64,000 nucleotides of DNA from a virus (IMGVR_UViG_3300021963_000032); one strand, 5' to 3'; positions 8,810-62,521 are shown, numbered from the stretch's first letter. The notes: generated by a model from the letters alone, not told the origin. Translations and numbers: made by a program.

Positions 8810-8847
8810 CTGTTGCAGAATCGTTATCTATGTTGTATCTTTACGGC

Positions 8848-9771
8848 ATGAAAAACGAACAGAACCTAGGATATGCATGCATCAATATGCAGCTCCGTAA
8901 GCAAAACATTTTTACCGGTAGAACTTGTCGTAAAGCTACATTCCAAGAGAAGGGTTTAGATTACGTAGGCGAATTAGGATTGCAGAATGTCCGAGACTTA
9001 TATCAAATCGTCCAGTGGAACAGCCGCAATAACATTAAGATGTATCGTATCGGTTCAGATATCTTTCCGTGGCAGAGTGAGTATAAGTTGGAACAACTAC
9101 CTCAGTATACTAAGATTGTTAACTTGCTCAAAGCTATTGGAGACTATGTTACAAAAGATGGTCAACGACTATCATTCCATCCAGGGCCATTTAATATTCT
9201 AGGATCTACTAAGCCTGGTGTTGTTGAGCGTACTATTGTCGACCTGCAGAATCACTCAGAGATATTTGACTTAATGGGATTCGAACCTAGCCCGTACAAT
9301 AAGATTAACATCCACGTTGGAGCTACGTATGGTGATAAGGAGGGTACATTAGATCGCTGGTGTAATAACTTTAAGCGTCTCAATGAGAGAACACGGAAAC
9401 GCATCACATTAGAGAATGACGATAAGGAGAGTATGTATACGATTGTAGACCTACTATGGGCACACGAACGCGTTGGTGTTCCGTTGGTGTTTGATTACCA
9501 TCACCATAACTGCCACCCAGGAGATATTGATCAACAGACAGCTTTGCAATATGCAATGAGTACTTGGCCAGAGGGAATTAGACCAGCTGTGCATTATTCA
9601 TCTTCTCGTAGGCTAAACGAAGATAGCAGTGTCAAAGTACAAGCACATGCTGATTACATATACGAAAAGATTGATACGTTCGGTTATGATATTGATATCA
9701 TGTTGGAATGTAAAGCAAAGGAGCTTGCCTTGTTGGAATATCGAAAAAAACATAGTATATTAGTAGCATGA
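8848..9771 (+). CDS. uvdE: UV damage endonuclease (UvdE family)
   Basis: LGYACINMQL...KMYRIGSDIFPW...HPGPF...INIHVG matches UvdE. The start is taken at the ATG just after the promoter motif at 8813-8844. Confidence 0.6.
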   Translation: MKNEQNLGYACINMQLRKQNIFTGRTCRKATFQEKGLDYVGELGLQNVRDLYQIVQWNSRNNIKMYRIGSDIFPWQSEYKLEQLPQYTKIVNLLKAIGDYVTKDGQRLSFHPGPFNILGSTKPGVVERTIVDLQNHSEIFDLMGFEPSPYNKINIHVGATYGDKEGTLDRWCNNFKRLNERTRKRITLENDDKESMYTIVDLLWAHERVGVPLVFDYHHHNCHPGDIDQQTALQYAMSTWPEGIRPAVHYSSSRRLNEDSSVKVQAHADYIYEKIDTFGYDIDIMLECKAKELALLEYRKKHSILVA

Positions 9772-12141: not shown

Positions 12142-12215
12142 GCTTTCTTAGCTCAGTTGGTAGAGCGCTTCACTTGTAATGAAGATGTCATCGGTTCGAC
12201 TCCGGTAGAAAGCTC
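12142..12215 (+). tRNA. tRNA-Thr(TGT)
   Basis: Hand-folded cloverleaf. GCTCAGTTGGTAGAGC D-arm, anticodon loop CTTGTAA, GGTTCGACTCC T-arm. Confidence 0.7.
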
Positions 12216-12249
12216 AGAACAAATGTTCTTTGACATATTGGCTTTAAAT

Positions 12250-12321
12250 TTTCCCCTCGTCTAATCGGCAGGACGTCTGGTTTTGGGCCAGAAGATCGAG
12301 GTTCGAACCCTTGGGGGAAAA
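12250..12321 (+). tRNA. tRNA-Gln(TTG)
   Basis: Acceptor TTTCCCC/GGGGAAA, anticodon loop TTTTGGG, T-loop TTCGAAC. Confidence 0.65.
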
Positions 12322-12328
12322 CAATAAT

Positions 12329-12412
12329 GGAAGTTTAATTAAGCTGGCGCTTAACCTAGTCTTGAAAACTAGTGGTACCGAAAGGTATGGGGATCGATAC
12401 CTCAGGCTTCCT
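12329..12412 (+). tRNA. tRNA-Ser(TGA), type II
   Basis: Acceptor GGAAGTT/GGCTTCC, anticodon loop CTTGAAA, long variable arm. Confidence 0.55.
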
Positions 12413-12539
12413 CTAAATCAATACAGAGTTGAATGATACGAGCCTCCAAAGTTCGAAAGGAGTCATGGTTTGATTGAAGCGAGCAACTGTGCGCTATACA
12501 AAAAGTGTTTGCATTCGGCAAATACTACACAGTTGACAA

Positions 12540-12612
12540 CTAGGTGTGGGAAAGTTGGTAATCCGCGTGGTTTGGGACCACGAGACCGCAGGTTCGAGCC
12601 CTGCCACTTAGA
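12540..12612 (+). tRNA. tRNA-Pro(TGG)
   Basis: Anticodon stem CGTGG/CCACG, loop TTTGGGA, T-arm GCAGGTTCGAGCCCTGC. Confidence 0.65.
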
Positions 12613-12681
12613 CTATTTTTTAATCACTAAAACCCCAGAAATTATGGAAAGTGACAAGAGCGACAAGAGTCGCAAACAGCC

Positions 12682-12755
12682 GATCTCGTAGCTCAGTTGG
12701 CTAGAGCACCTCACTTTTAATGAGGGAGTCGTGGGTTCGAGCCCCACCGGGATCA
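12682..12755 (+). tRNA. tRNA-Lys(TTT)
   Basis: Acceptor GATCTCG/CGGGATC, anticodon loop CTTTTAA. Confidence 0.7.
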
Positions 12756-12764
12756 CAAACAAAT

Positions 12765-12837
12765 GCTCCTTTAGCTCAGTTGGTAGAGCGCTGCCCTTAC
12801 ATGGCAGATGTCGCAAGTTCGAGCCTTGCAGGGAGTA
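12765..12837 (+). tRNA. tRNA-Val(TAC)
   Basis: Anticodon stem CTGCC/GGCAG, loop CTTACAT. Confidence 0.65.
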
Positions 12838-12847
12838 CAAATAATAT

Positions 12848-12931
12848 GCCGTAGCGCTGAAGTTGGAGAGTCGGGGCAGACTGTAAATCTGTTGTCGTAA
12901 GGCTGAGTAGGTTCGAATCCTACCTGCGGCA
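12848..12931 (+). tRNA. tRNA-Tyr(GTA), long variable arm
   Basis: Acceptor GCCGTAG/CTGCGGC, anticodon loop CTGTAAA, T-arm GTAGGTTCGAATCCTAC. Confidence 0.65.
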
Positions 12932-12936
12932 CAATT

Positions 12937-13008
12937 GGACAAGTAGCTCAGGGGTAGAGCAAGCGACTGTTAATCGCTGGGTCGGAGGTTCGATCCCTCC
13001 CTTGTCCG
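12937..13008 (+). tRNA. tRNA-Asn(GTT)
   Basis: Acceptor GGACAAG/CTTGTCC, anticodon loop CTGTTAA. Confidence 0.7.
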
Positions 13009-13166
13009 CAATGATATAATGTTGGGTTTCCTGGTAGTAACGGTATTAACCATGGTAAGTAAGCTACAAGATTCTAGTAATAAGCACCAGATGGATTCCG
13101 TGCGACTAAAGTATCAATAGTTTTAAGGGTGGCTCTAGTTCTATAAAAACGTAATTGCCTCCACCA

Positions 13167-13240
13167 GCGCTTATAGCTCAATTGGTTAGAGCACCCGCCT
13201 GATACGCGGAAGGTTATTGGTTCGATTCCAGTTAAGCGCA
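13167..13240 (+). tRNA. tRNA-Ile(GAT)
   Basis: Acceptor GCGCTTA/TAAGCGC, anticodon loop CTGATAC. Confidence 0.7.
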
Positions 13241-13298
13241 CAAAAAGAGGAATAACTAGTGTGGGTGCCTCAACTGCTGCAGCAGTACCACACTCAAT

Positions 13299-13384
13299 GG
13301 AGAGTAAACCTTGATGGCGATAGGGCTTGCCTGCTAAGCAATGTGTACCCGTAAGGGTATTTGGTTCGATTCCAATGCTCTCCG
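13299..13384 (+). tRNA. Probable type II tRNA, tentatively Ser(GCT)
   Basis: Acceptor GGAGAGT/GCTCTCC, T-arm TTGGTTCGATTCCAA, candidate anticodon loop CTGCTAA. The D-arm is atypical. Confidence 0.4.
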
Positions 13385-13389
13385 CAGCA

Positions 13390-13460
13390 TGCCGTAGGTC
13401 CTGGGTGGACGAGGTGGGCTCATATCCTGCTTTGGATTGGTTCGAACCCAATATACGGTA
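13390..13460 (+). tRNA. tRNA-Met/Ile2 family (CAT), copy 1
   Basis: Anticodon loop CTCATAT, T-arm ATTGGTTCGAACCCAAT. The acceptor pairing is slightly irregular. Confidence 0.5.
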
Positions 13461-13470
13461 CAACAAAGGT

Positions 13471-13635
13471 ATGATGAATATGAAAAAAGTAATAACAGGA
13501 AGTTTCGAATCATCGAGAGATGTACTTCGAGGAAAGGCTCCATCGCCCAAAGGACGATTGGACTGGCGTGGTCAGGCCGTACAAGTTTACAACAAGTTCG
13601 CTAAGAAGTTGACTAAACGTAAGTCAGCGTTGTGA
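13471..13635 (+). CDS. Small basic protein (54 aa) embedded in the tRNA array
   Basis: ATG preceded by AAAGG. The product is MMNMKKVITGSFESSRDVLRGKAPSPKGRLDWRGQAVQVYNKFAKKLTKRKSAL. A strong terminator follows immediately. Confidence 0.35.
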   Translation: MMNMKKVITGSFESSRDVLRGKAPSPKGRLDWRGQAVQVYNKFAKKLTKRKSAL

Positions 13636-13640
13636 ATTGA

Positions 13641-13670
13641 CCCTCCCCACTTACGGAGTGGGGTTTTTTT
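13641..13670 (+). terminator. Rho-independent terminator
   Basis: CCCTCCCCACttacgGAGTGGGG followed by TTTTTTT. Confidence 0.65.
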
Positions 13671-13674
13671 AAAT

Positions 13675-13748
13675 GGTGGTTGTAGCTCAATCGGAAGAGC
13701 GCCAGATTGTGATTCTGGAGGTAGTGGGATCGAAACCCACCATTCACC
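13675..13748 (+). tRNA. tRNA-His(GTG) with encoded G-1
   Basis: Anticodon stem CCAGA/TCTGG, loop TTGTGAT. An extra 5' G pairs with the C discriminator. Confidence 0.6.
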
Positions 13749-13754
13749 CAATAT

Positions 13755-13840
13755 GCCTCGGTGGTGAAATTGGTAAACACGCTGGATTTAAGCTCCAGTG
13801 GGCAGTAATGTCCTTGCGGGTTCGAGCCCCGCCTGAGGTA
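13755..13840 (+). tRNA. tRNA-Leu(TAA), type II
   Basis: Anticodon stem CTGGA/TCCAG, loop TTTAAGC, long variable arm, T-arm GCGGGTTCGAGCCCCGC. Confidence 0.65.
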
Positions 13841-13989
13841 CTAAAGATGATACAAAGCGTAGAATGGTAAGCGTGGAGAGACGTGGCGCAAGGGTACACA
13901 CTAAGGATAAGCAATCAGTGCTCAACTCTCTAATGGTGTGTGAAGCCACTGAGGCAAGATTCCTGATAAAGCCATTTATCATCTTTTTT

Positions 13990-14061
13990 GCCCACATAGT
14001 TCAATGGATAGAACGTCCGGCTACGAACCGGGAGATAGGAGTTCGAATCTCTTTGAGGGTA
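13990..14061 (+). tRNA. tRNA-Arg(ACG)
   Basis: D-arm GTTCAATGGATAGAAC, anticodon stem TCCGG/CCGGG, loop CTACGAA. Confidence 0.6.
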
Positions 14062-14066
14062 CAAAT

Positions 14067-14139
14067 GCCCCTATAGTTCAACTGAATAGAACATCCCCCT
14101 TCTAAGGGGAAGATTGGAGTTTGACTCTCTGTGGGGGTA
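14067..14139 (+). tRNA. tRNA-Arg(TCT)
   Basis: Anticodon stem TCCCC/GGGGA, loop CTTCTAA. The T-loop TTTGACT is atypical. Confidence 0.5.
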
Positions 14140-14176
14140 CGATCCGATGTGTGATCCGAGCTAGGTCGGATAATTT

Positions 14177-14249
14177 ACTCCAGTAGCTCAGTTGGTAGAG
14201 CACCGGATTCCAAATCCGGGTGTCGGAGGTTCGAGTCCTTCCTGGTGTG
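14177..14249 (+). tRNA. tRNA-Trp(CCA)
   Basis: Anticodon stem CCGGA/TCCGG, loop TTCCAAA, T-arm GGAGGTTCGAGTCCTTC. Confidence 0.65.
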
Positions 14250-14317
14250 CATAAGACGGGAGGCGAGTGTTGAGGGTACAACCGTTAGGATACCTCAGCC
14301 AAGTCCTCCCCGAAGAA

Positions 14318-14390
14318 GGACAGGTAGCTCAGTCGGTAGAGCACGGCGCTGAAGACGCTGGTGTCGGGGGTTCGAATCCCTCTCTGTCCA
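14318..14390 (+). tRNA. tRNA-Phe(GAA)
   Basis: Acceptor GGACAGG/TCTGTCC, anticodon loop CTGAAGA. Confidence 0.7.
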
Positions 14391-14395
14391 CAAAT

Positions 14396-14465
14396 GCTCA
14401 GGTTGATCTTGGAGGTCGGTAGGTCTGCAAAACTTACAGAGTTGGTTCGATTCCAACCTTGAGCT
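14396..14465 (+). tRNA. tRNA-Cys(GCA), compact 70 nt
   Basis: Acceptor GCTCAGG/CTTGAGC, anticodon stem TAGGT/ACTTA, loop CTGCAAA, short D-arm. Confidence 0.55.
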
Positions 14466-14509
14466 CAAAAATAATTGTTCATAACTTTGTAATTATTTTG
14501 ATATAACTG

Positions 14510-14546
14510 TTGCAAACACCACAACAATGGAGTATCTTTAGGTATA
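14510..14546 (+). promoter_or_regulatory. Conserved phage promoter motif (TTGCA...TATCTTTAGGTATA) driving the tRNA sub-cluster
   Basis: CTGTTGCAAACACC...AGTATCTTTAGGTATAAG, preceded by the GTTCATAACTTT upstream element. Confidence 0.55.
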
Positions 14547-14591
14547 AGAAAGAGCAAAGGAGTTCATTGACGTAGTGGTAAACAAACAAAC

Positions 14592-14679
14592 AGTCAGGTG
14601 ATAGTAATTGGTAACTGCGGTGGTGCGTTAAGAGCGCTTAATATCCATCGGATTACAGGTTCGAGTCCTGTCCTGACTA
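14592..14679 (+). tRNA. Non-canonical tRNA-like element, 88 nt, anticodon unresolved (possibly Leu-like type II)
   Basis: Perfect acceptor AGTCAGG/CCTGACT and canonical T-arm ACAGGTTCGAGTCCTGT. The internal region (GGTGG...21 nt...CCATC) does not fold into a standard anticodon arm. Confidence 0.4.
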
Positions 14680-14699
14680 TAAAAAAGTTAACAAAAGTG

Positions 14700-14730
14700 T
14701 TGACTTATCGAAACAAAAGGAGTATATTTA
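14700..14730 (+). promoter_or_regulatory. Promoter variant (TTGAC...TATATTTA) with duplicated leader GTTCATTGACATAGTGGTAAACAAACAAAC
   Basis: Near-duplicate of the 14510-14591 promoter-leader unit, placed upstream of the second tRNA sub-cluster. Confidence 0.5.
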
Positions 14731-14765
14731 TAAAAGTTCATTGACATAGTGGTAAACAAACAAAC

Positions 14766-14847
14766 GCGCGAGTGGTGGAATTGGTAGACACGCCGGATTT
14801 AGGATCCGGTGCCGAAGGGTTTGAGGGTTCGAGTCCCTCCTTGCGTA
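14766..14847 (+). tRNA. tRNA-Leu(TAG), type II
   Basis: Anticodon stem CCGGA/TCCGG, loop TTTAGGA, long variable arm, T-arm GAGGGTTCGAGTCCCTC. Confidence 0.65.
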
Positions 14848-14943
14848 CAAAAAGATCAACTAGTCACTGTAATCAATCAGTGGGCGTCAGTAAGTATTCT
14901 GAGCGACGTTTAAATCCTGACAGCAATGTTGATTTTTTATTTT

Positions 14944-15017
14944 GCAGGCATAGCTCAATTGGCTAGAGCACTAGCCTTCCAAGCTGGGGGTTGTGGGTTC
15001 GAGTCCCACTGCCTGCT
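14944..15017 (+). tRNA. tRNA-Gly(TCC), with 3' CCA encoded
   Basis: Acceptor GCAGGCA/TGCCTGC, anticodon loop CTTCCAA, T-arm GTGGGTTCGAGTCCCAC followed by TCCA. Confidence 0.7.
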
Positions 15018-15022
15018 CCAAT

Positions 15023-15096
15023 GGGGGATTAGCTCAGCTGGCTAGAGCACTGCACTTGCACTGCAGGGGTCAACGGTTCGAATCCGTTATCCTCCA
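15023..15096 (+). tRNA. tRNA-Ala(TGC)
   Basis: Anticodon stem CTGCA/TGCAG, loop CTTGCAC, T-arm AACGGTTCGAATCCGTT. Confidence 0.7.
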
Positions 15097-15101
15097 CAAT
15101 T

Positions 15102-15173
15102 GGTCCATTGGTGTAGTGGCTAACATACCACCCTGTCACGGTGGTGCCGCGAGTTCGATTCTCGCATGGACCG
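15102..15173 (+). tRNA. tRNA-Asp(GTC)
   Basis: Acceptor GGTCCAT/ATGGACC, anticodon loop CTGTCAC. Confidence 0.7.
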
Positions 15174-15183
15174 CAAACAATAC

Positions 15184-15255
15184 GCTGCCATCGTCTAACG
15201 GTTAGGACCTATGGTTTTCATCCATAAAATCGGAGTTCGATTCTCCGTGGCAGTA
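15184..15255 (+). tRNA. tRNA-Glu(TTC)
   Basis: TCGTCTAACGGTTAGGAC D-arm, anticodon stem TATGG/CCATA, loop TTTTCAT. Confidence 0.7.
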
Positions 15256-15350
15256 CAAAGATCGGAGTAATTAACCGATCCTAACAAGTAAGTATGCATA
15301 TAGCTTAAAGAGATTTGACGTCACTAATTTCTGCATGCTTCTCTTGATTA

Positions 15351-15426
15351 ACTACTTATGGTGTAAATTGGTTTGCACACGGGTCACACGGCCCGAGGGT
15401 TATAGGTTCGAGTCCTATGGGTAGTT
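15351..15426 (+). tRNA. tRNA-like with atypical anticodon loop, identity unresolved
   Basis: Acceptor ACTACTT/GGGTAGT and T-arm ATAGGTTCGAGTCCTAT are canonical. The anticodon stem CGGG/CCCG encloses a 6- or 8-nt loop (T)CACACG(G). Confidence 0.35.
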
Positions 15427-15432
15427 CAACAT

Positions 15433-15505
15433 AGCGGGGTGGAGAAGATGGTATTCTCGGCGGGCTCATAACCCGAGGACGCTGGTTCGAGTCCGGCCCC
15501 CGCTA
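15433..15505 (+). tRNA. tRNA-Met/Ile2 family (CAT), copy 2
   Basis: Acceptor AGCGGGG/CCCCGCT, D-stem GAGA/TCTC, anticodon loop CTCATAA. Confidence 0.6.
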
Positions 15506-15601
15506 CAAATACGTAAACCTAAGTACCCATACCGCTCACGGTGGGCTAAGTAAGATACAATTTCGTACTGCGGGAAGTAGAATGCTTAGGAGCGTGTTTA
15601 C

Positions 15602-15684
15602 GGCTAGGAGTGTAAAAGGCGTCGGTGCTGATTCCATCTGTTGAAGATGGTTGCTCATTGTAGGTTCGAATCCTATCCTAGCTG
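15602..15684 (+). tRNA. Putative type II tRNA-like element, anticodon unresolved
   Basis: Acceptor GGCTAGG/CCTAGCT and T-arm GTAGGTTCGAATCCTAT. The internal hairpin CCATCtgttgaaGATGG could be the anticodon arm (TTG) or the variable arm. Confidence 0.3.
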
Positions 15685-15689
15685 CAGAG

Positions 15690-15763
15690 GGTCCTTTAGC
15701 TCAGTTGGTTAGAGCAGCTCGCTCATAACGAGAAGGTCCCAGGTTCGAATCCTGGATGGACCA
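15690..15763 (+). tRNA. tRNA-Met/Ile2 family (CAT), copy 3
   Basis: GCTCAGTTGGTTAGAGC D-arm, anticodon loop CTCATAA, T-arm CCAGGTTCGAATCCTGG. Confidence 0.6.
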
Positions 15764-15772
15764 CACAAAAAG

Positions 15773-15803
15773 TTGCAAATAAGAAAAGAAAGTTGTATAT
15801 TAA
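15773..15803 (+). promoter_or_regulatory. Promoter motif (TTGCAAAT...TGTATATTAAA)
   Basis: Same TTGCA -33 and TAnnTTTA -7 architecture as the other promoter instances. Confidence 0.45.
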
Positions 15804-15819
15804 AAGAAAAGAAACAGTT

Positions 15820-16740
15820 ATGAAGAATCATTCACTATCACCAAAAGGTTTATCGCTATCTCAAGCGCAATCAGTATCCAATCTTTGTAATCAAAGAGCA
15901 AAGGATATCCAGGCCAATATTTCAGTAATCAACAATGCACAGAAGGTTATTACCATTGACGGTAAAGACTACGTTAAGACTGTAGGTAATGCAATCCCTT
16001 ACGAGATCGTGGATCTTTTGAAAGAGAAAGCACGCTTACATGCTGCCCAAGCTTTCTTGATGGAGAACATCAAAGCTAAAGACGAAGCGCTGAGTGAGAT
16101 CAAGAATAGACGATTCGTTTCTGGTATCGAAGGTCCTGAGAGCCCACGTTATATGGAACCAGAATACATCGATCCAGTTGATGAGCAGTGGGGTTGGGAA
16201 CAGCTATCTACTAAAGAGTACTGTGAGTTCTTAGAAGCTGAAGCATTTGCATCACACGTTGGACAATTCATCCACGGAGGTGGTAAGTTGGATAAACTTC
16301 GTAAGGAGTTACCTACAATGGAATTGTTGGAGTGGGCTGAGATTGAGGATGGCAAGAAGACGCCAGTAGTAGTTAATGCACACCACACGTCAGAGTATTT
16401 AGCTGACTTGCATGAGGATCTTTCTGGACTTCATAGAGATTACGAGCAAAAAGTAAACTACTATAAAGCTAAGGTGAAGAACCTAGTGACTTTGGAGAAT
16501 GCTCGCATTGCTCGAGTTAATGCAGACAACCAGTCAGCAGCTAACGAAATCAACGACAAGTTGATTACAGAGTACAAAACTGCAAGACAAGCTTGGTTAG
16601 CCAAAGTTTCGAAAGCAACAAATGAGTTTGAAGAAGCTCGTCAGAAAGAGACCGCTCGAATCGCAGCTCTACGAATTGAGGTATCACCGATATTCAAAGA
16701 AGTGATTGATGGCTTTCTTTCTAAGTTAGGTAAAGAGTAA
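15820..16740 (+). CDS. hypothetical protein
   Basis: ORF. The start is taken downstream of the promoter motif. The product is a coiled-coil-rich acidic protein. Confidence 0.45.
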   Translation: MKNHSLSPKGLSLSQAQSVSNLCNQRAKDIQANISVINNAQKVITIDGKDYVKTVGNAIPYEIVDLLKEKARLHAAQAFLMENIKAKDEALSEIKNRRFVSGIEGPESPRYMEPEYIDPVDEQWGWEQLSTKEYCEFLEAEAFASHVGQFIHGGGKLDKLRKELPTMELLEWAEIEDGKKTPVVVNAHHTSEYLADLHEDLSGLHRDYEQKVNYYKAKVKNLVTLENARIARVNADNQSAANEINDKLITEYKTARQAWLAKVSKATNEFEEARQKETARIAALRIEVSPIFKEVIDGFLSKLGKE

Positions 16741-17075
16741 GGTGGTAGGGAGCTAGACATGAGTCGATGCTCCCTTACTTTTGTGTTGGGATAGTTAGGT
16801 TTTCTTATACAAGATATGATATATATTCATTATACTAAGAAACGCTGGATGTAGGGCACTGCCCTTATTTAGCCCTGAAACTATCGCTTCCCTGCAAACT
16901 CCAAAAGCTGAGATAGAACTCAACGTTAGACAAGTTACTCCTCTCCGGTCGAGATAATTGGCTAGCAAACCGAGACTTAGTTTTTGATTTTGCCTTTGTA
17001 GCAGGGAAGGTCTTTGATTTGGAATTTAGCATTGGTTTAGTCTATATCCCTAATTATCTCAACAACTTATTTTAT

Positions 17076-17179
17076 AGTCAGGTGGCGGAATGGTAGACGC
17101 TCAGGGTGATAATTAAGTAGTTCGGATTATAAATACAACCTCGATGGACTACATGTAGGTTCGAATCCTGCCCTGACTA
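17076..17179 (+). tRNA. Non-canonical 104-nt tRNA-like element, Leu-like D-arm, possibly intron- or insert-containing
   Basis: The acceptor AGTCAGG/CCTGACT is identical to the element at 14592. D-arm GCGGAATGGTAGACGC, T-arm GTAGGTTCGAATCCTGC, with about 30 extra nt internally. Confidence 0.35.
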
Positions 17180-17224: not shown

Positions 17225-17620
17225 ATGGAAACAACAATGTTTGCTTTAGGGATTCTTGCGATGATAATGGTGATGTTAATTACTGTTGTTGTTGTTGGTA
17301 TTGTTAAGGTATTTAAGATGAGTAAACAAATCAAAGATTTCTACACATACCTGCATGAGTCAGAAAGATCTACAAGTGATTACATTCGTAGAGTAGAGCA
17401 AAATACTGATATGCAGTTTCGGGATGTTAATAGAGATATCAACATGATCGAACATACGATGATGAATCGAATGGATCACGGATTGATAGCAGTAAATGAT
17501 CAAATTACAGATTCAGTTACTCAAAGTAATTCGTATACAGACAAACGAATCGATAAGCTAATTGATACCTACTTTGAGGTACAAGAAGCAAAACAATCAA
17601 AAAAACTAATTAAAGGATAA
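17225..17620 (+). CDS. hypothetical membrane protein
   Basis: N-terminal TM helix (LGILAMIMVMLITVVVVGIV). Confidence 0.4.
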   Translation: METTMFALGILAMIMVMLITVVVVGIVKVFKMSKQIKDFYTYLHESERSTSDYIRRVEQNTDMQFRDVNRDINMIEHTMMNRMDHGLIAVNDQITDSVTQSNSYTDKRIDKLIDTYFEVQEAKQSKKLIKG

Positions 17621-17664: not shown

Positions 17665-19650
17665 ATGAAACATATTAGTACAATTCTATTTGTATTGATC
17701 TTTGCTACAAGCTTTGGTCAGTACTGTCCTGCATTAGGACCAGATCAACTCCTTCCATGTGGGTTAGGAACAACGACGTTAACAGCTGACCTATCTCAGT
17801 GTGGACCTGGAGGACCTTCTCCAAAACAAACCACGGATTACCTAGTTAGTAGTATTCCCTATGTTGCTCAAGCTAACACGGGTACTAACATATTCATGAC
17901 AGATGATTCTCAGCAAGGACCTTTTAATATAGGATTCAACTTTTGCTTCTTCGGATCAACCTATACTCAATTCTATATAGGATCGAATGGTTGGATATCT
18001 TTCTCAGGAGGGCAGCCAACTACATTTACCTCTTCACCAATTCCAACAGCAAACCCTCTAGTACCTAAGAATTGTGTAATGGGGCCATGGCAGGATTGGC
18101 ATCCAGGACTTGGTGGTCAGATTAAATATCAAACAACTGGAGTAGCTCCATGTAGAAAATTAACAGTAAGTTGGATAGGTGTACCTATGTTTAGTTGTAC
18201 GGGAAACCAAGGAACATTCCACATTGTGGTCTATGAGTCAACTAACGCAATCGAAACCTATATTCAAGATAAACCTGCATGTACACAGTGGCAAGGTGGT
18301 ACCGCAGTAGAAGGTATACACAATACAGCTGGTTCAATAGGGATAGCCGTTCCTGGAAGAAACTCCACAGCATGGACTGCAAACAATGATGCTTGGAGGT
18401 GGACTCCAAATGGTCCTCTAGTTAATCCAGTACTGACTTGGTACCAGGTAGGTAATCCAGTAGCTATTGGAACTGGACCATCTATAACAGTCACACCACC
18501 CGCTGCAGGTGCTCAGTATACTTGTCGTTTTGTTTATCCTATTTGTAATGTAGGATGGGCTACTTGTAATGCTTTTGCAGGATTGGGACCAGATACAGTA
18601 TTCGTACAACCTGGACCTCCGTATCCAGTAGTAAGTCCAATTGCAGGTTCAGATACTCTATGTTCGTATTCAACAAATGAGCTATATACAATTATCAATC
18701 AACCTGGAGTAAATTACTTATGGGACGCTGTTGGGACTATTACGTCAGGTCAAGGTGCAGATAGCATTACTATTGATTGGAATGCAATTGCTCCAGGATT
18801 CATTCCTGGTGGGGTTATGGTTACTCCGGAAGCAAATGGTTGTGTAGGTGCACCTGCTTCTTTTGATTTATTTATACTAGATGTTGTTCCAATTATTCAA
18901 CCGATAGGACCATTCTGCGAATATGACGATAGCACTCAGCTAGTTGGTAATCCATTAGGTGGAGCATTCTCAGGAGTAGGAGTTTCTAATACTTACTTCA
19001 ATCCACAAAACGCAGCTGGCGTTGATACAATTACTTATACATACACTCTCAGTGGCTGTACGTTTGATACAACAACTCTTGTTACCGTGTACCCAAAACC
19101 TACCTTAGATTCTATTACTCCTCACAATACATTCTTTGAGATATGTGAGCTAGAAGTGGCCACAATAACATGGGATGCAGATGGTTATCCTGCAAATGGA
19201 TATACGGAGTGGACTTGGTTAGGACAGAATACTCAGCAACCATTATTATCTGTAACAGTACCTTGGGATTCAGCAGGAACATATAATGTGTCTGCAGTCT
19301 ATTGGGCTAATGGTTGTGTGTCGGATCCACAAACTGCTTACATCACAGTAATTCAGTGTCCGGAAACTTTATTCTATATTCCTAATTCATTTACACCAGA
19401 TGGTAACGAATGGAATCAAGTATGGCAACCTATAATTACTAGTGGGATAGATCCATACAACTATCAGGTGTTGGTGTACAATCGTTGGGGAGAAGTTGTA
19501 TTTGAGTCTCACGACATTGAAGTTGGATGGGATGGAACTTATAAAGGTAGGCCATGCATGGAAGGTGTATACTTTTACATAGTAAGCTGTACCGATACTA
19601 AAACAGCTAAGAAGTTTAACCTACAAGGACATATTTCTTTATTAAAATAA
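17665..19650 (+). CDS. Secreted Cys-rich protein with T9SS type-B C-terminal sorting domain (gliding-motility-associated CTD)
   Basis: Signal peptide MKHISTILFVLIFATSFGQ. The C-terminus FYIPNSFTPDGNEWNQVW...YNRWGEVVFES...GWDGTYKG matches the TIGR04131-like CTD motif. Confidence 0.55.
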   Translation: MKHISTILFVLIFATSFGQYCPALGPDQLLPCGLGTTTLTADLSQCGPGGPSPKQTTDYLVSSIPYVAQANTGTNIFMTDDSQQGPFNIGFNFCFFGSTYTQFYIGSNGWISFSGGQPTTFTSSPIPTANPLVPKNCVMGPWQDWHPGLGGQIKYQTTGVAPCRKLTVSWIGVPMFSCTGNQGTFHIVVYESTNAIETYIQDKPACTQWQGGTAVEGIHNTAGSIGIAVPGRNSTAWTANNDAWRWTPNGPLVNPVLTWYQVGNPVAIGTGPSITVTPPAAGAQYTCRFVYPICNVGWATCNAFAGLGPDTVFVQPGPPYPVVSPIAGSDTLCSYSTNELYTIINQPGVNYLWDAVGTITSGQGADSITIDWNAIAPGFIPGGVMVTPEANGCVGAPASFDLFILDVVPIIQPIGPFCEYDDSTQLVGNPLGGAFSGVGVSNTYFNPQNAAGVDTITYTYTLSGCTFDTTTLVTVYPKPTLDSITPHNTFFEICELEVATITWDADGYPANGYTEWTWLGQNTQQPLLSVTVPWDSAGTYNVSAVYWANGCVSDPQTAYITVIQCPETLFYIPNSFTPDGNEWNQVWQPIITSGIDPYNYQVLVYNRWGEVVFESHDIEVGWDGTYKGRPCMEGVYFYIVSCTDTKTAKKFNLQGHISLLK

Positions 19651-21220: not shown

Positions 21221-22456
21221 ATGATAAAACTAAAGAACATACTAAACGAAGTACTCGAAGAAGGAGTATATGATCCAGGAATCCTAAAATGCGTATTCCT
21301 AGCAGGTGGGCCTGGATCAGGTAAAACAACAGCAGCAAATCAATTACTTGGAGTAAGCTTTGATAGCTTTTCTGAGGCTGGACTAAAACCAGTTAATAGT
21401 GACAAATTCTTTGAGTTCATCTTAAAGTCTCGTAACCTACCAACTGACCTAGCATCTCTTTCTCCTGAGGACTTTGAGAAGATTACTGTAGGTGCAGACT
21501 CTCCTAGAGAGAAAGCAAAGGGAATGTTGAAGACATCTTATACATACTACGTTGGTGGTCGTTTAGGTCTTATCATTGATGGTACTGGAGATGATCCAAA
21601 CAAAACAAGACAACAAGCAGAGGAATTGCAGAAAGTGTTTGGCTACGATGTAGCTATGGTGTTTGTTAACACATCACTAGAAAAAGCGATTGATAGAAAT
21701 AACAATCGAGAAAGAAAGCTACCTGCTGATCTTGTAACTAAGATCTGGAATGAAGCACAGAAAGCAAAGGAAGTACATAAGCGCTTCTTTGGTAACAACT
21801 TCTACGAAGTACTTAACGAGAAGGATAGTGCACCAGGACAGCCATTAGATATCAACCCACAAGTACAAAAGTTAGTACGTTCGTTCATACAAAAGCCAGT
21901 TCAGAACCCAGTAGGTAAAGAGTGGATCAAGAAAGCACTTGCTGCAAAGTCTTCTATGAGTGAAGCAGAAAATCCTCAGTATGAGATATTCTGTGATATG
22001 GATGGAGTGCTTTGTGATTTTGTTAAGCAGTGGAAGAAATACTTCAAAGGAGAAGCTCCTGACGATATGAGACATCGAATTGGTAAACCAGAGTTTGATG
22101 AGTACCTAGATTCTATGGACAGAAAGTTTTGGAATACTATGGAGTGGATGCCAGGAATGCAAAGAGTGTGGAATGTTATTAGCAACTATGGTGCAGGTGC
22201 TAAAATACTTAGTGCCCCTGCCGAGAACCCAGACTCACCTGCAGGTAAGTTGGATTGGGTAAAGAAGAATCTTTCAAATCCAGAAGTGATCTTCCGCAAG
22301 TCAACACAAAAGCAAGAGTTCTCAGGACCTAACAAGATCCTTATTGATGACCTCAAAAGAAATATTGATCAGTGGAGAGCTAGAGGAGGAATTGGAATAC
22401 ACCACATCAGCGTGGAGAAGACACTAAAAGAACTAAGTGATTTAGGAATAAAATAA
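21221..22456 (+). CDS. Fusion of a P-loop (d)NMP kinase-like domain and a HAD 5'(3')-deoxyribonucleotidase-like domain
   Basis: N-terminal FLAGGPGSGKTT Walker A. C-terminal FCDMDGVLCDF HAD motif I (compare DMDGVLADF of NT5C-type enzymes). Confidence 0.5.
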   Translation: MIKLKNILNEVLEEGVYDPGILKCVFLAGGPGSGKTTAANQLLGVSFDSFSEAGLKPVNSDKFFEFILKSRNLPTDLASLSPEDFEKITVGADSPREKAKGMLKTSYTYYVGGRLGLIIDGTGDDPNKTRQQAEELQKVFGYDVAMVFVNTSLEKAIDRNNNRERKLPADLVTKIWNEAQKAKEVHKRFFGNNFYEVLNEKDSAPGQPLDINPQVQKLVRSFIQKPVQNPVGKEWIKKALAAKSSMSEAENPQYEIFCDMDGVLCDFVKQWKKYFKGEAPDDMRHRIGKPEFDEYLDSMDRKFWNTMEWMPGMQRVWNVISNYGAGAKILSAPAENPDSPAGKLDWVKKNLSNPEVIFRKSTQKQEFSGPNKILIDDLKRNIDQWRARGGIGIHHISVEKTLKELSDLGIK

Positions 22457-25112: not shown

Positions 25113-25826
25113 ATGATAGTTACTTTAATTTCAGACACGCACACAAAGCATAACCAAATCACAAAGGATCTTCCTGGTGGTGATTTATTAATCCATGCCG
25201 GTGACTTTATGTCCTCAGGTTACAGCCCTTATGAAGCAGAAGAGTTCTTTAAGTGGTTTGATAAAATTAACAACTATGACACAAAAGTGTTCATTGCAGG
25301 TAACCACGATCGATTAATGGAGAGTGATCCTGAATGGGCTAGTGGTATTCTAACCGGATACAAGACTATAGAATACCTACAAGACGATTGGTTGGGGATA
25401 TATAACGATGGTCCTAATGGTGATCTACCGGAAGAGAATGTACGCATCTACGGTTCACCATGGCAACCTGAGTTCTACGATTGGGCTTTTAATTTACCAA
25501 GACATAGTGAAGAGATGAAAGCACGTTGGGATGCAATTCCTGATTTTACAGATATCCTAATAACACACGGACCTCCATTCGGTCACTTAGATATTCCAGG
25601 TGGAGGAAGACCTATACGAGTTGGATGTGAAATGCTACGTGCACGAGTTGATGTAGTTAGACCAAAGATTCATGTGTTTGGACATATCCATGGAAGTCAC
25701 GGTTACTACTACGATGGGCACACTCACTTCTTCAATGCTTCTGCACTGAATGAGAGGTATGAGTATCGCAATCTACCATTCACATTTGATTGGAATCATT
25801 TAACTAATGAAATTAAATGGTTGTAG
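25113..25826 (+). CDS. Calcineurin-like metallophosphoesterase
   Basis: DTH...GDF...GNHD...HGP...GHIHG motif series. Confidence 0.55.
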   Translation: MIVTLISDTHTKHNQITKDLPGGDLLIHAGDFMSSGYSPYEAEEFFKWFDKINNYDTKVFIAGNHDRLMESDPEWASGILTGYKTIEYLQDDWLGIYNDGPNGDLPEENVRIYGSPWQPEFYDWAFNLPRHSEEMKARWDAIPDFTDILITHGPPFGHLDIPGGGRPIRVGCEMLRARVDVVRPKIHVFGHIHGSHGYYYDGHTHFFNASALNERYEYRNLPFTFDWNHLTNEIKWL

Positions 25827-26915: not shown

Positions 26916-27365
26916 ATGAAAAAAGACACAGTTATATTCGATTTAGATGGCACATTGGCTTTGATTGATGAAAGAAGAGCTTTGGCCGCAAAACCAAACG
27001 GAAAGATCAATTGGAAAATATTCTTTGCTCCAGAGAACATTGCATTGGATAAACCAAATACACCGGTTATGTCGGCATTTCACGGATTTAAGCGCCAAGG
27101 GTTCGATGTAGTTATTTTCTCAGGAAGAGATGAAATAAGTCGCGCTGAAACCATAGCATGGCTAGACGGCTACGATATTGAACCAGATGCCTTGAAGATG
27201 AGACCACAAGGATCTTTCACACCGGATGATATCTTGAAGAAACAGTGGTTAGATGAGTTGGGAGCAGACAAAGTGTTCTGTGTATTCGATGACAGAGATA
27301 AAGTAGTACAAATGTGGAGAGACAATGGATTAACTTGTTTCCAAGTAGCTCCGGGTAATTTTTAA
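26916..27365 (+). CDS. HAD-family phosphatase (polynucleotide 3'-phosphatase-like)
   Basis: VIFDLDGTLA HAD motif I and FSGRDE motif II region, adjacent to the kinase, CCA enzyme and RNA ligase. Confidence 0.5.
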   Translation: MKKDTVIFDLDGTLALIDERRALAAKPNGKINWKIFFAPENIALDKPNTPVMSAFHGFKRQGFDVVIFSGRDEISRAETIAWLDGYDIEPDALKMRPQGSFTPDDILKKQWLDELGADKVFCVFDDRDKVVQMWRDNGLTCFQVAPGNF

Positions 27366-27368
27366 GTT

Positions 27369-27755
27369 ATGAAAGAGTTATTCTTATTAAGAGGTTTGCC
27401 TGGAAGTGGTAAGTCTACGTTAGCTAAAACATTAGGAGGACTTCACTACGAAGCTGATATGTACTTTACAAATGCTGCAGGAGACTATAAGTTTGATCCC
27501 ACTGGTTTACGTAGCGCACATGAGTGGTGCCGAGATTTAGTCTGGGTAGCTATGACTAAGTCTGAACCACTTGTAGTAGTATCAAACACATTCACTCAGG
27601 AGTGGGAGATGGAAGCTTACTACAAATTAGCTGAGAAGTATGGATATCGAGTATCGTCATTGATAGTTGAGAACCGTCACGGAGGAGTAAATGAGCATGG
27701 AGTACCAGCTGACAAGTTGGAACAAATGAAGAATAGATTCGAAGTAAAACTATAA
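27369..27755 (+). CDS. P-loop polynucleotide 5'-kinase-like protein
   Basis: LLRGLPGSGKSTLAK resembles the T4 Pnk-type kinase Walker A. Confidence 0.5.
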   Translation: MKELFLLRGLPGSGKSTLAKTLGGLHYEADMYFTNAAGDYKFDPTGLRSAHEWCRDLVWVAMTKSEPLVVVSNTFTQEWEMEAYYKLAEKYGYRVSSLIVENRHGGVNEHGVPADKLEQMKNRFEVKL

Positions 27756-27772
27756 AAAGTTTTGCACAACTG

Positions 27773-27810
27773 TTGCATCAACGGAAAATAGGTACGACCT
27801 TTAGATATAA
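27773..27810 (+). promoter_or_regulatory. Conserved phage promoter (TTGCA-N22-CTTTAGATATAA)
   Basis: Family motif upstream of the ATG at 27828. Confidence 0.5.
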
Positions 27811-27827
27811 TTAAAAACACACAAGTT

Positions 27828-28577
27828 ATGCCAAAGATTTACAAAGTAGGAGGTTGCGTTAGGGATACGTTTCTAGGTATTGATTCGAAGGATATTGATT
27901 TTACCTTTGTGTTAGATAACATTGACAGATCCGTAGAGGAAGGGTTTCAGATAATGACTGAGTACCTAGAACATAAGGGATTCACAATCTTCTTATCGAC
28001 TCCACAGATGTTTACAATTAGAGCTAAGTTCCCAAGTACAGACGGACCTTATGCTAGATACTGCGGTATGGTTGCAGACTTTGTGTTAGCGAGAAAGGAA
28101 GTTGGATATGTTCCAGGAACGAGACAACCGATTCTTGAGTTAGGTACGTTAGAAGATGACCTTATTAGAAGAGACTTCACTCTGAATGCACTAGCTGTAG
28201 ATGAGGACGGAAATCTAATTGATCTTTTCAATGGCGTTAACGATCTAAAGGTAGGCTTACTCAGAACTCCATTAGATCCAAAAGTCACAATGATGGATGA
28301 TCCATTGAGGTTTTTAAGAGCTTTGAGGTTTAGTATCACTAAAGACTTTACGATTGCTCTTGAGATATTCGATGCTATACAAAACCAACCTGAGATTCTA
28401 GAGAAGCTAGAAAAAGTAGTCTCTGCAGAGAGAATTAGAGAAGAGGTTTTCAAAATGATGAATGCTGACACTGTAAAGACTTTGGAGTTGTTTAGAATCG
28501 TAGAAGAGATGGTTCCAGGATTCACTAAGCTAGTATTCAGCAAAGGTCTATGGTTGAAACCAACATTTGAACAATAA
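27828..28577 (+). CDS. cca: Class II nucleotidyltransferase: CCA-adding enzyme / poly(A) polymerase head domain
   Basis: VGGCVRDTFLGIDSKDIDF and RRDFTLNAL signatures. Confidence 0.65.
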   Translation: MPKIYKVGGCVRDTFLGIDSKDIDFTFVLDNIDRSVEEGFQIMTEYLEHKGFTIFLSTPQMFTIRAKFPSTDGPYARYCGMVADFVLARKEVGYVPGTRQPILELGTLEDDLIRRDFTLNALAVDEDGNLIDLFNGVNDLKVGLLRTPLDPKVTMMDDPLRFLRALRFSITKDFTIALEIFDAIQNQPEILEKLEKVVSAERIREEVFKMMNADTVKTLELFRIVEEMVPGFTKLVFSKGLWLKPTFEQ

Positions 28578-28595
28578 ATAAATACACAATAAGAA

Positions 28596-32532: not shown

Positions 32533-32568
32533 TTGCATAAACGAATAGGAAGGAGTATCTTTAGGTAT
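32533..32568 (+). promoter_or_regulatory. Conserved phage promoter (TTGCA-N22-CTTTAGGTATAA)
   Basis: Family motif upstream of the ATG at 32584. Confidence 0.55.
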
Positions 32569-32583
32569 AAACAAAAGCAAGTT

Positions 32584-33441
32584 ATGATAGTATTAGATTT
32601 AACAAACCCAGTAAACTCCTCAGTGAAGTATCAGGTTAATAAGTTTCCTGACGGACAGCAGTCCATTACTTTACTTAATAGTCATCATTTTTGGACATTG
32701 AAGAATGAGACAATAAAGATCCATAGTCACCTTAATTCGTTCGCAGACTTGGAGTTAATTATTTGTGCTAAGAAGGTTTTAGATAACCTAGGAACTCCTC
32801 AAGTAATACTACACGTTCCATACTTCCTAGGAGCTAGATCGGATCGTAGGTTTGAAGAGGGAACAGTTCACTACCTTAAAGAGGTAATCTGTCCTATTAT
32901 CAACTCACTGAAGTTTGATGCAGTGGTAGTATTAGATCCTCACTCAGATGTACTTGAAGCTTGTCTCGATAACATGGTGAAGATCGACAACCACTTAATT
33001 GTGAAGTCTGCATTGACTGCAATTGACAATAAGAATGATGCACGAGATCGAATCTGCTTAGTGTCACCTGACGCTGGTGCTTACAAGAAGATCTTTGATG
33101 TAGCTAAGAAGTTCGACATTGATAAAGTGATTACAGCTACAAAGGTCCGAGACTTGAAGACCGGTAAGATCTTACATACAGAAGTTCCTACACCAGACAT
33201 GCACAACGACATTAAATATGTGATTGTCGATGACATCTGTGATGGTGGTAGAACTTTCACTGAGATTGCAAAGGCTATCAAAGCTGTTAGACCAACTGCT
33301 AAAATCTATCTAGTAGTAACTCACGGAATCTTCTCAGGTGGTGAAAAGCCTTTGAAAGAGTACTTTGAGCATGTATACACTACTAATAGTGTGAAGGAAG
33401 GTGAGTCAGATTTTGTTACACGATACAACGTATTCAAATGA
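32584..33441 (+). CDS. prs: Ribose-phosphate pyrophosphokinase homolog (PRPP synthetase-like, candidate ADP-ribose pyrophosphokinase)
   Basis: VIVDDICDGGRTFTEIAK matches the PRPP/PRT-binding motif DDxxDTGxT. The N-terminal Prs-like domain is present. The start is set after the promoter. Confidence 0.6.
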   Translation: MIVLDLTNPVNSSVKYQVNKFPDGQQSITLLNSHHFWTLKNETIKIHSHLNSFADLELIICAKKVLDNLGTPQVILHVPYFLGARSDRRFEEGTVHYLKEVICPIINSLKFDAVVVLDPHSDVLEACLDNMVKIDNHLIVKSALTAIDNKNDARDRICLVSPDAGAYKKIFDVAKKFDIDKVITATKVRDLKTGKILHTEVPTPDMHNDIKYVIVDDICDGGRTFTEIAKAIKAVRPTAKIYLVVTHGIFSGGEKPLKEYFEHVYTTNSVKEGESDFVTRYNVFK

Positions 33442-62485: not shown

Positions 62486-62521
62486 CTATCTCTCGTGTCG
62501 AAAGGCACAACTTGTGTGTTA

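Follow-up and report, generated by a model that had tools for sequence, protein, structure and literature searches.

Four tRNA-like elements, E1 to E4, were analysed in a 64,000-nt stretch of viral DNA (IMGVR_UViG_3300021963_000032; the whole stretch is called the window). They are real, conserved and structured RNA genes, none of them is an ordinary tRNA, and they constitute three phage-specific families of tRNA-shaped RNAs: family A (E1 and E2), family B (E4) and family C (E3). Arrays of tRNA genes in phages are generally interpreted as supplying codon-matched tRNAs or as making good host tRNAs that have been cleaved; in the present phages, a substantial part of the 'tRNA-like' genes appears unable to decode. 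The explanation that we favour, and to which we give about even weight, is that the elements are non-decoding RNAs made and stabilised like tRNAs, forming a natural 'tRNA scaffold' that shows exchangeable modules.

Four tRNA-shaped elements in a phage genome

All four elements have an acceptor stem of 7 bp and a T arm whose loop is of the TPsiC type. In the window the T-loop motif GGTTCGANTCC was counted 17 times where 0.04 would be expected, which excludes chance, and homologues of each element were found in other phage contigs. The elements and their parts are listed below.

14592-14679, + strand: E1, family-A tRNA-like RNA, 88 nt (sequence; minimum free energy and centroid fold)
14592-14598 / 14672-14678, + strand: E1 acceptor, AGTCAGG/CCTGACT, discriminator A at 14679
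about 14601-14618, + strand: E1 degenerate D arm
14618-14650, + strand: E1 extended arm at the anticodon-arm position (two 6-bp stems separated by an internal loop, AGCG tetraloop)
14655-14671, + strand: E1 T arm, ACAGG-TTCGAGT-CCTGT
17076-17179, + strand: E2, family-A tRNA-like RNA, 104 nt (fold; RF00005 local match)
17076-17082 / 17172-17178, + strand: E2 acceptor, AGTCAGG/CCTGACT, A73 at 17179
17084-17101, + strand: E2 Leu-type D arm
17102-17154, + strand: E2 core, 53 nt
17155-17171, + strand: E2 T arm, GTAGG-TTCGAAT-CCTGC
15351-15426, + strand: E3, family-C tRNA-like RNA, 76 nt (covariation, 13 distinct homologues)
15351-15357 / 15419-15425, + strand: E3 acceptor, followed by a 3-nt linker
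15361-15378, + strand: E3 D arm
15380-15395, + strand: E3 hairpin CGGGUC-ACAC-GGCCCG replacing the anticodon arm (6 bp, 4-nt loop)
15402-15418, + strand: E3 T arm
15602-15684, + strand: E4, family-B tRNA-like RNA, 83 nt (18-sequence alignment)
15602-15608 / 15677-15683, + strand: E4 acceptor
15609-15612 with 15652-15655, + strand: E4 long-range helix P2, covarying
15618-15629, + strand: E4 P3, a small hairpin with a GG-loop
15634-15650, + strand: E4 P4 hairpin CCAUCU-GUUGA-AGAUGG (6-bp stem, 5-nt loop)
15660-15676, + strand: E4 T arm

Much of this architecture had been recognised in a first-pass annotation of the window. The common acceptor stem and canonical T arms that it ascribed to E1 and E2 agree with the sequence, and the discriminator A is also common to both; in E1, the segments GGTGG and CCATC separated by 21 nt are present exactly as described. 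E2 does have a Leu-type D arm, after which comes a core of 53 nt. The coordinates given for E4 hold, although its length is 83 nt and not 82.

Standard tools did not assign the elements as ordinary tRNAs. ARAGORN with default settings called 23 tRNAs and one transfer-messenger RNA (tmRNA) in the window, and none of E1-E4. Using Infernal, E2 scored 36.3 bits against RF00005 (threshold 29), with the whole anticodon arm skipped as a 47-nt local insert, and E4 scored 19.1 bits against the same model with the acceptor and T arm alone aligned. E1 had no significant Rfam match (its 17.1 bits on the tRNA-Sec model is not significant), and E3 had no match. The outcome named in the first-pass annotation as a refutation, assignment of the four elements by Infernal as ordinary tRNAs, was not seen; E2 alone exceeded the threshold, by a local alignment.

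Family A joins a uniform frame to exchangeable cores

To define family A, 80 IMG/VR loci were fetched by the neighbouring open reading frame (ORF) 15820-16737; these hold elements with the ends of E1 and E2 but unrelated middles. The family-A set was obtained by an IMG/VR scan with the 24-nt 3' end (at least 120 stretches) and comprises at least 203 distinct members with lengths of 61-191 nt; they come from uncultivated phages, for the most part phages of freshwater Bacteroidota. No earlier description of such a family was found in searches of the full-text literature or in Rfam, and two of our four elements (E1 and E2) belong to a large, apparently undescribed phage family.

Members are built as AGUCAGG-UG-GCGGAAU(U)GGUAGACGC / core / (U)ACAGG-UUCGAAU-CCUGU-CCUGACU-A. 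The frame is derived from tRNA-Leu, with the acceptor AGUCAGG/CCUGACU, U8, a Leu-type D arm, a canonical T arm and A73, whereas the anticodon and variable region is replaced by unrelated cores of 10-130 nt. Some members have an additional covarying hairpin within the D loop. Up to 8 copies occur within 3.5 kb, with real tRNAs in between, while E2 and several other members sit between ORFs and not in arrays. In the same phages the real isoacceptors show 9-32 acceptor variants each and family A essentially one; the family-A frame varies less than do acceptor stems in real tRNAs.

The possibility that family A represents a host tRNA fragment or a phage attachment site (attP) was rejected by a genome scan. 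In the genomes of 185,579 species, the 24-nt 3' end was found in 22 contigs, all from metagenome-assembled genomes (MAGs) and none from an isolate genome; the contigs were mostly binned as Bacteroidota (Chitinophagia, Flavobacterium, Sediminibacterium, Saprospirales). Because the 3' end occurs in MAG contigs only, it is neither a host tRNA nor an attP relic, and the elements moreover contain both tRNA halves.

The cores are highly diverse, forming at least 173 similarity clusters, of which 149 are singletons (among the matches listed). They turn over within a fixed position. A close relative of the window phage recovered in a metagenome scan (L223; ORF protein 93% identical) carries at the E2 site the same frame with a different, unalignable core of 21 nt instead of 53 nt; the flanks are 90-100% identical, and the two sequences diverge between about positions 13 and 97 of the element. 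Similarly, in five related loci that have an upstream region and the element ends in common, one syntenic slot holds a different core in each locus (57-143 nt).

Conversely, a given core can be conserved where its surroundings are not. The cores of E1 and E2 had no match in ~3 Mb of fetched phage DNA, and exact-word scans of IMG/VR returned exactly one relative for each: L303 for E1 and L304 for E2. The L304 element has the E2 core type; over 82 nt it matches E2 at 94% identity, compared with 57% in the flanks, and its context is unrelated. The L303 element, solitary and located between ORFs, is 90% identical to E1 over its 88 nt with flanks at 59%, and differs by one compensatory pair in the outer stem (GGUGG/CCAUC to GGCGG/CCGUC) while the inner 21 nt are invariant. 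Across 32 pairs of elements with the same core type, mean identity was 0.88 in the core, 0.94 in the frame and ~0.62 in the 120-nt flanks, the last being the level of unrelated sequence. Compensatory changes were observed in family-A cores and D stems. GNRA-capped hairpins are twofold enriched in the cores (39 versus 19.5 +/- 4.2 expected), hairpins with 4-8 nt loops are ~30% over-represented, and some cores contain additional T-loop hairpins. Conservation despite exchanged flanks, together with these signs of structure, indicates that the cores are selected RNA units and not drifting spacers.

This conservation bears on an alternative in which activity resides in the frame. The element would then be a decoy or sponge formed by the tRNA top half, which titrates a factor binding the acceptor, T and D arms and which, with its anticodon arm gone, can neither decode nor be cut. 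Candidate targets would include a tRNA-end-modifying toxin, a nuclease, LeuRS (leucyl-tRNA synthetase), EF-Tu, RNase P or a tRNA-sensing defence system, and the copies would provide dosage. The uniformity of the frame beyond that of real tRNAs and the many copies per genome fit such a role, as do the short and simple replacements in E3 and E4. Moreover, the phage encodes tRNA repair, CCA addition, a full tRNA set and a tmRNA, suggesting that host attack on tRNAs matters. However, an irrelevant core should drift or shrink, yet core types keep 0.88-0.94 identity amid randomised flanks, and cores reach 130 nt with compensatory changes and GNRA enrichment. Neither are anticodon-like loops enriched: NUNNNRN heptaloops closed by at least 4 bp numbered 15 in the cores versus 14.1 +/- 3.8 expected, so that mimicry of an anticodon-nuclease substrate is unlikely. 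This counts against the anticodon-loop part of the earlier suggestion of decoys for host anticodon nucleases, a suggestion that may or may not be correct in another form; we consider a decoy or sponge acting through the frame rather unlikely.

Sequence comparison indicates that whole elements are swapped between phages by recombination, raising the question of whether the exchange could be the function. In that case the ends would be recombination sites or homology arms of a DNA-level cassette, tRNA-likeness a relic and the RNA of little function. Whole elements are replaced between close relatives with crossovers in the first ~12 and last ~8 nt, the same element is found in unrelated contexts, and the absence of E1 from L223 is a 174-nt difference with a direct repeat (30 nt) of the leader GTTCATTGACRTAGTGGTAAACAAACAAAC at its boundaries; all of this would be expected of a cassette. 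Against this, the conserved parts are those of tRNA structure at the RNA level (U8, the GG in the D loop, the T-loop TTCGA and the paired stems), compensatory changes are seen in the cores as well as in D and T stems, neither a recombinase nor any other protein lies consistently next to the elements, and the ends form inverted repeats over 7 nt only. A purely DNA-level role is therefore improbable.

Aberrant cores and the weakened D stem of E1 might also be taken for decay of tRNA pseudogenes. Hundreds of members with intact, near-identical frames argue otherwise, as do cores conserved across unrelated flanks, covariation in all three families, and E4, which is 98.8% identical in L223 although both of its flanks have been replaced. 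The pseudogene explanation is effectively refuted by this conservation pattern.

Covariation defines the E3 and E4 families

The E3 family was analysed using 13 distinct sequences. Under the proposed structure 97.9% of cells are paired, with both-sided changes at 8 pairs; the covariation score was reached by 0 of 500 shuffles, and controls in which the structure was slid pair at 37-48%. The hairpin replacing the anticodon arm has a stem of 5-6 bp and a loop of 4, 5 or 6 nt, never 7 or 8. For E3 itself, the acceptor, D and T arms and the CGGG/CCCG stem noted in the first pass are borne out, but covariation extends the stem to 6 bp (CGGGUC/GGCCCG) closing an ACAC tetraloop, in place of the 6- or 8-nt loop suggested there. 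E3 is kept in L223 with two compensatory stem pairs.

Among the 18 sequences of the E4 family, 95.6% of cells are paired and both-sided changes occur at 13 pairs, including pairs of the long-range helix P2. This helix encloses a conserved joiner of the UAAUGA type (UAAAAG in E4), while P4 is variable with a loop of 3-13 nt. Some members have the AGUCAGG frame. In both families the acceptor and T arm covary.

The anticodon region departs from standard tRNA geometry

A canonical tRNA would require a 5-bp stem and a 7-nt loop with U33 and purine 37 at the standard elbow distance. This reading was rejected for the elements: E2 lacks an anticodon arm with a 5-bp stem and 7-nt loop, and E3 and E4 have no anticodon loop. 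For E1, two folds of the inner sequence were considered. In the first, of minimum free energy, GUUAAG pairs with CUUAAU under an AGCG tetraloop; in the second, GGUGC pairs with GCGCU and presents a GUUAAGA loop with U33, UAA and G37. In both folds the arm exceeds the standard tRNA geometry by at least 4 bp.

The second fold is one argument for unusual decoding tRNAs, whether containing introns, shifting frame, suppressing stops or, for E1, acting as a long-armed tRNA-Leu(UAA). ARAGORN called the L303 copy as tRNA-Leu(taa) by the GUUAAGA-loop fold, and with introns allowed it called E1 as Leu(taa) and E2 as Cys(aca) or Tyr(ata) depending on threshold; E2 also lies above the Rfam tRNA threshold. 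However, the fold called for L303 breaks a good D stem and the covarying outer stem, the Rfam match of E2 is without an anticodon arm, and the intron calls are inconsistent and non-canonical in position. No single excision gives a canonical anticodon arm, cores of 10-130 nt are too short for self-splicing (group I) introns, the E2 orthologue in L223 has a core of only 21 nt, and cores in one syntenic slot are unrelated. The intron-containing tRNAs proposed in the first pass are thus not supported. Its frameshift or suppressor tRNAs fared no better, given the 4-6 nt loops of the E3 family and the scattered 'anticodons' of family A, and the ORFs of the window, long, contiguous and in standard code, show no sign of recoding. 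In addition, the 23 tRNAs of the array and two tRNA-Ser genes found at a relaxed threshold together cover all 20 amino acids, with both Leu(taa) and Leu(tag) present. Decoding in an unusual manner is therefore very unlikely. Among the four options originally offered, tRNA-like non-decoding RNAs are the only one that the data back.

At the level of the family, default ARAGORN called 33 of 203 family-A members (among the matches listed), with scattered and often A34-type 'anticodons', and many members passed the Rfam tRNA threshold (30-45 bits). Censuses of phage tRNAs that count such calls are biased.

Proposed biogenesis and function

The data above establish the anatomy and gene context of the elements and the conservation and exchange of their cores. 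The part recognised by the tRNA machinery is kept, namely the 7-bp acceptor, the T arm and the D arm or a D-like elbow hairpin. The anticodon arm is replaced by a 6-bp tetraloop hairpin in E3, by a two-hairpin domain with a long-range helix in E4 and by a lineage-specific core in E1 and E2. What follows on the expression, maturation and action of E1-E4 we infer. Their transcription would be driven by leaders of their own or occur together with, or next to, the tRNA array, and they would be excised by RNase P with trimming of the 3' end, given CCA by the phage CCA-adding enzyme and protected from decay as tRNAs are; their stability would follow from the retained acceptor/T minihelix and elbow. 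Such molecules should be unable to read codons in normal geometry. The frame could serve as a chassis for biogenesis and stability, and probably also as a handle for one common partner, with the core as a specific functional module, conserved as a unit and exchanged by recombination in the conserved ends. Core exchange fits effectors in a fast phage-host conflict.

Family A may in addition be leucylated. LeuRS needs A73 and the core interactions U8-A14, G18-U55 and G19-C56, and complete loss of the anticodon stem-loop lowers affinity only 2.5-fold (PMC2377443). All of these determinants are kept in E2 and in the family-A consensus, AGUCAGG-U8-G9-GCGG-A14-A-U-(U)-G18-G19-UAGA-CGC ... UUCGAAU ... 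A73, and since LeuRS does not need the anticodon arm, leucylation is plausible. The identity set is less clear in E1, which has an additional U ahead of A14 and a weak D stem.

A more specific version, which we regard as possible but hold only tentatively, is that family A constitutes a modular RNA display in which an invariant, probably leucylatable and CCA-tailed frame would be dealt with by one conserved partner or pathway and would carry a very large library of short functional RNA modules exchanged horizontally. These might be, for example, aptamer-like inhibitors or specificity determinants directed against host defence or translation factors, and phages of freshwater Bacteroidota would swap them by recombination in the frame ends. 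If correct, such a display would be an RNA counterpart of anti-defence gene cassettes.

Several observations weigh against a scaffold with functional modules. First, most family-A members were retrieved with a pattern that itself contained the 3' end and A73, so that 3' uniformity is partly a matter of ascertainment; in a set anchored by protein and selected on the 5' acceptor and T loop alone, which is less biased but small, U8 was present in 33 of 34, G9 in 34 of 34 and A73 in 31 of 34. Second, because the GUUAAGA (UAA) heptaloop can form on the extended arm and ARAGORN calls L303 as Leu, the E1 type may have a decoding-related role. Third, the stability of the cores exceeds that of shuffles only weakly (mean z -0.7; for E2, z -0.57), a signal so weak that single-sequence folding alone says little. 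Fourth, no conserved neighbour protein was found among 1,257 clustered ORFs lying within 3 kb of family-A elements at 142 loci, the largest family reaching at most 11 loci. Finally, no Rfam family was detected in any core at E < 0.05 (20 loci), and antisense matches of the E1 and E2 cores to the 64-kb window (both strands) were no longer than those of shuffled cores, which led us to reject an antisense RNA against the phage's own DNA.

A further rival draws on the location of some elements. Cleavage by RNase P and RNase Z needs the top half of a tRNA only, and the folds could act as processing punctuation, separating or stabilising neighbouring transcripts; E2, which lies outside the array as the first pass had stated (46 nt 5' of ORF 17225-17620), the solitary L303 element and several other members located between ORFs would suit this. 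Punctuation, however, leaves unexplained the long, conserved and covarying cores, the single acceptor sequence found everywhere and the up to 8 copies in tRNA arrays, where real tRNAs already give cleavage sites. We consider it a slim possibility. Ranked by weight, the rivals to a scaffold carrying modules are the decoy or sponge, the DNA cassette, processing punctuation, decoding tRNAs and pseudogenes.

Relation to known RNAs

The closest system in design is synthetic. RNAs built on the engineered tRNA scaffold, with inserts reaching about 250 nt at the anticodon arm, undergo processing in bacteria and are stable there (PMC3753655). The scaffold retains the three arms (acceptor, T and D) by which cellular factors process and protect the RNA, and takes an arbitrary structured RNA of tens to about 250 nt at the site of the anticodon stem-loop (Ponchon and Dardel; PMC3753655). 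A like arrangement was found in family A: these three arms are retained, and a variable insert, conserved as a unit, occupies the anticodon-arm position. This match is the reason for reading the frame as a chassis and the core as a functional module. The two also differ. The scaffold is an artificial construct based on human tRNA-Lys3 or E. coli tRNA-Met, replaces the anticodon stem-loop alone and has no natural repertoire, whereas family A uses a Leu frame, replaces the anticodon and variable arms and sometimes has a D-loop hairpin, and occurs naturally in hundreds of phages.

In setting, the closest counterparts are RNAC and RNAD of phage T4 (species 1 and 2 RNAs), small stable RNAs of the phage tRNA cluster whose role has been unknown for decades (PMC3014915, PMC9697503). 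Like E1-E4 they are small RNAs within a phage tRNA gene cluster; unlike them they are two fixed genes of T4-like phages of Enterobacteria. We know of no family with an invariant frame and variable core for these RNAs.

In gammaherpesvirus MHV68, tRNA-miRNA-encoded RNAs use a non-decoding tRNA-like module as a handle for the expression and processing of attached hairpins, which lie 3' of the tRNA-like part and are released by tRNase Z. The use of a viral tRNA-like module as a handle is shared; but in this eukaryotic virus the hairpins are downstream of the module, whereas the cores of family A are inside it.

YrlA RNAs, the tRNA-like domain of tmRNA and allo-tRNAs have single features in common with the elements, but comparison placed the elements in none of these groups. 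YrlA (RF02553) is a non-decoding tRNA-like module with a T arm, a D arm and an acceptor-like stem that is also found in some phages; it ends in a Ro-binding stem, however, not an acceptor stem, and pairs with the Rsr protein, and matches in the window scored 22-25 bits against a threshold of 69 and covered T arms only. The tmRNA domain likewise combines acceptor and T arm with a replaced anticodon arm, and has a long-range helix after the D-like region as P2 does in the E4 family. In contrast to tmRNA, with G3:U70 alanine identity, pseudoknots, a tag ORF and a length of at least ~230 nt, E1 and E2 have U3-A70 and the elements are 76-104 nt without an ORF; the Rfam tmRNA model matched 62106-62488 only. 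Allo-tRNAs, with 8/4 or 9/3 acceptor/T stems, share an odd cloverleaf geometry, occurrence in metagenomes and phages and escape from standard finders, but have a normal 7-nt anticodon loop and decode (PMC5389517), whereas E2, E3 and E4 lack such a loop.

Non-coding RNAs of tRNA-like shape are thus already known; what is unusual, and possibly new, is the principle of an invariant frame that surrounds an exchangeable core. Should the cores act as effectors, they would amount to a new class of small RNAs in phages; the tRNA scaffold of biotechnology would have a precedent in nature, and a ready library of stable RNA modules that can be folded in vivo would be on offer.

Genomic context and further observations

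The window is phage DNA with a GC content of 39% and every gene on one strand. The gene at 17665-19650 carries a type IX secretion CHU_C domain, pointing to a Bacteroidota host. Among the isolated phages of INPHARED there is no close relative, the sole match being a tRNA-Glu shared with Cellulophaga phages; a distant search with E2 returned generic tRNA pieces only, and a protein search with the neighbouring ORF gave no isolated-phage match. The surrounding features are as follows.

12142-15764, + strand: tRNA array holding E1, E3 and E4 (23 ARAGORN tRNAs and two tRNA-Ser called at relaxed threshold only)
14562-14591, + strand: leader/promoter-like repeat GTTCATTGACGTAGTGGTAAACAAACAAAC directly 5' of E1, with a second copy at 14736-14765 before tRNA-Leu(tag)
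26916-29735, + strand: tRNA maintenance module, contiguous (Pfam and PHROGs matches)
26916-27365, + strand: PNKP-type phosphatase (Pfam/PHROGs)
27369-27755, + strand: P-loop kinase (Pfam/PHROGs)
27828-28577, + strand: tRNA nucleotidyltransferase / CCA-adding enzyme (Pfam/PHROGs)
28596-29735, + strand: RNA ligase (Pfam/PHROGs)
62106-62488: phage tmRNA (Rfam tmRNA, 98.6 bits)

The maintenance module would provide a context for the proposed maturation of the elements and for a host conflict centred on tRNAs. Separate from it are a fusion of a kinase and an NT5C-phosphatase at 21221-22456 and a metallophosphoesterase at 25113-25826. The tag predicted for the tmRNA is unusually long (ANVELSTWTFEDVMAFVGGELAVAA).

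A motif GTTC(A/T)TTGAC(A/G) at 12225, 14562, 14736 and 17191 precedes tRNA-Gln, E1, tRNA-Leu(tag) and ORF 17225, and a similar GTTCTTTGACATA lies ahead of the E1 orthologue in L303. The motif is probably a phage promoter or leader element; inspection of the GTTCATTGAC motif by eye gave no convincing -10 or -7 element of a sigma-70 or Bacteroidota promoter. Motifs of the GTTCTTTGA type were seen before or after elements in many related loci and in L303.

Both E2 and E4 are preceded by conserved non-coding DNA. Upstream of E2, the stretch 16885-17075 (in the gap 16790-17075) is ~90% identical in L223 compared with ~82% for its surroundings, and is better conserved than the adjoining coding DNA. 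It gave 147 blastn hits, with 75-83% identity in the fetched loci and nearly always just 3' of a homologue of ORF 15820-16737, and no Rfam match; it is a candidate for a conserved non-coding RNA or leader. A family-A element follows such a stretch only in the window and L223. Upstream of E4, a 95-nt leader (15507-15601) is found at 72-80% identity in L091, L082, L152, L006, L003 and L089, in several of which it is 5' of family-B elements. It is wholly missing from L223, which has a 105-nt insert 3' of E4.

Within the array, the two tRNA-Ser genes that escape default ARAGORN (TGA at 12329-12413 and GCT at 13299-13385) are drawn at the relaxed threshold with an 8-bp acceptor and a 4-bp T stem, resembling allo-tRNAs, and the second scored 40.1 bits on the tRNA-Sec model (threshold 47). 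A 71-nt tRNA(CAT) with a reduced D arm at 13391-13461 was called by ARAGORN and is not among the Rfam tRNA matches; 69-nt elements (ACCGAGTGAGCTTGGGATCAAGG...) in L018, L021 and L068 are its relatives. A hairpin, GATCGG-AGTAATTAA-CCGATC, lies 3' of tRNA-Glu at 15262-15283, and similar hairpins with the loop (A)GTAATTAA are found 3' of family-A elements in other phages (L090, L096).

Across the 80 fetched loci, 196 T-loop motifs lie outside called tRNAs, and further families of T-arm elements are missed by ARAGORN. They include an 85-nt type (AATCGGTTGGTGTCAACGGG...), a 75-nt type (TGGTCTGAAGCTTAAG..., with a TGTTA loop), a 154-nt type (GTTCGTATAGATG...) and a 71-nt D-armless element; examples are L037 4194-4278, L013 6243-6317, L037 6626-6779 and L043 7400-7470. 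Beside tRNA and family-A arrays, a GOLLD RNA was found in L109 (1477-1884; 298.8 bits) and a freshwater-1 RNA in L096 (4124-4186; 70.1 bits, threshold 72). In the window itself, one perfect T-loop motif (GGTTCGAATCC) occurs at 9277-9287 on the - strand inside the UvdE ORF 8830-9771, where no tRNA-like element was called. Finally, the window contains NAD-salvage-type genes, a phosphoribosyltransferase / PRPP-synthetase-like protein at 32533-33441 and a NAMPT/NAPRTase at 34399-35910.

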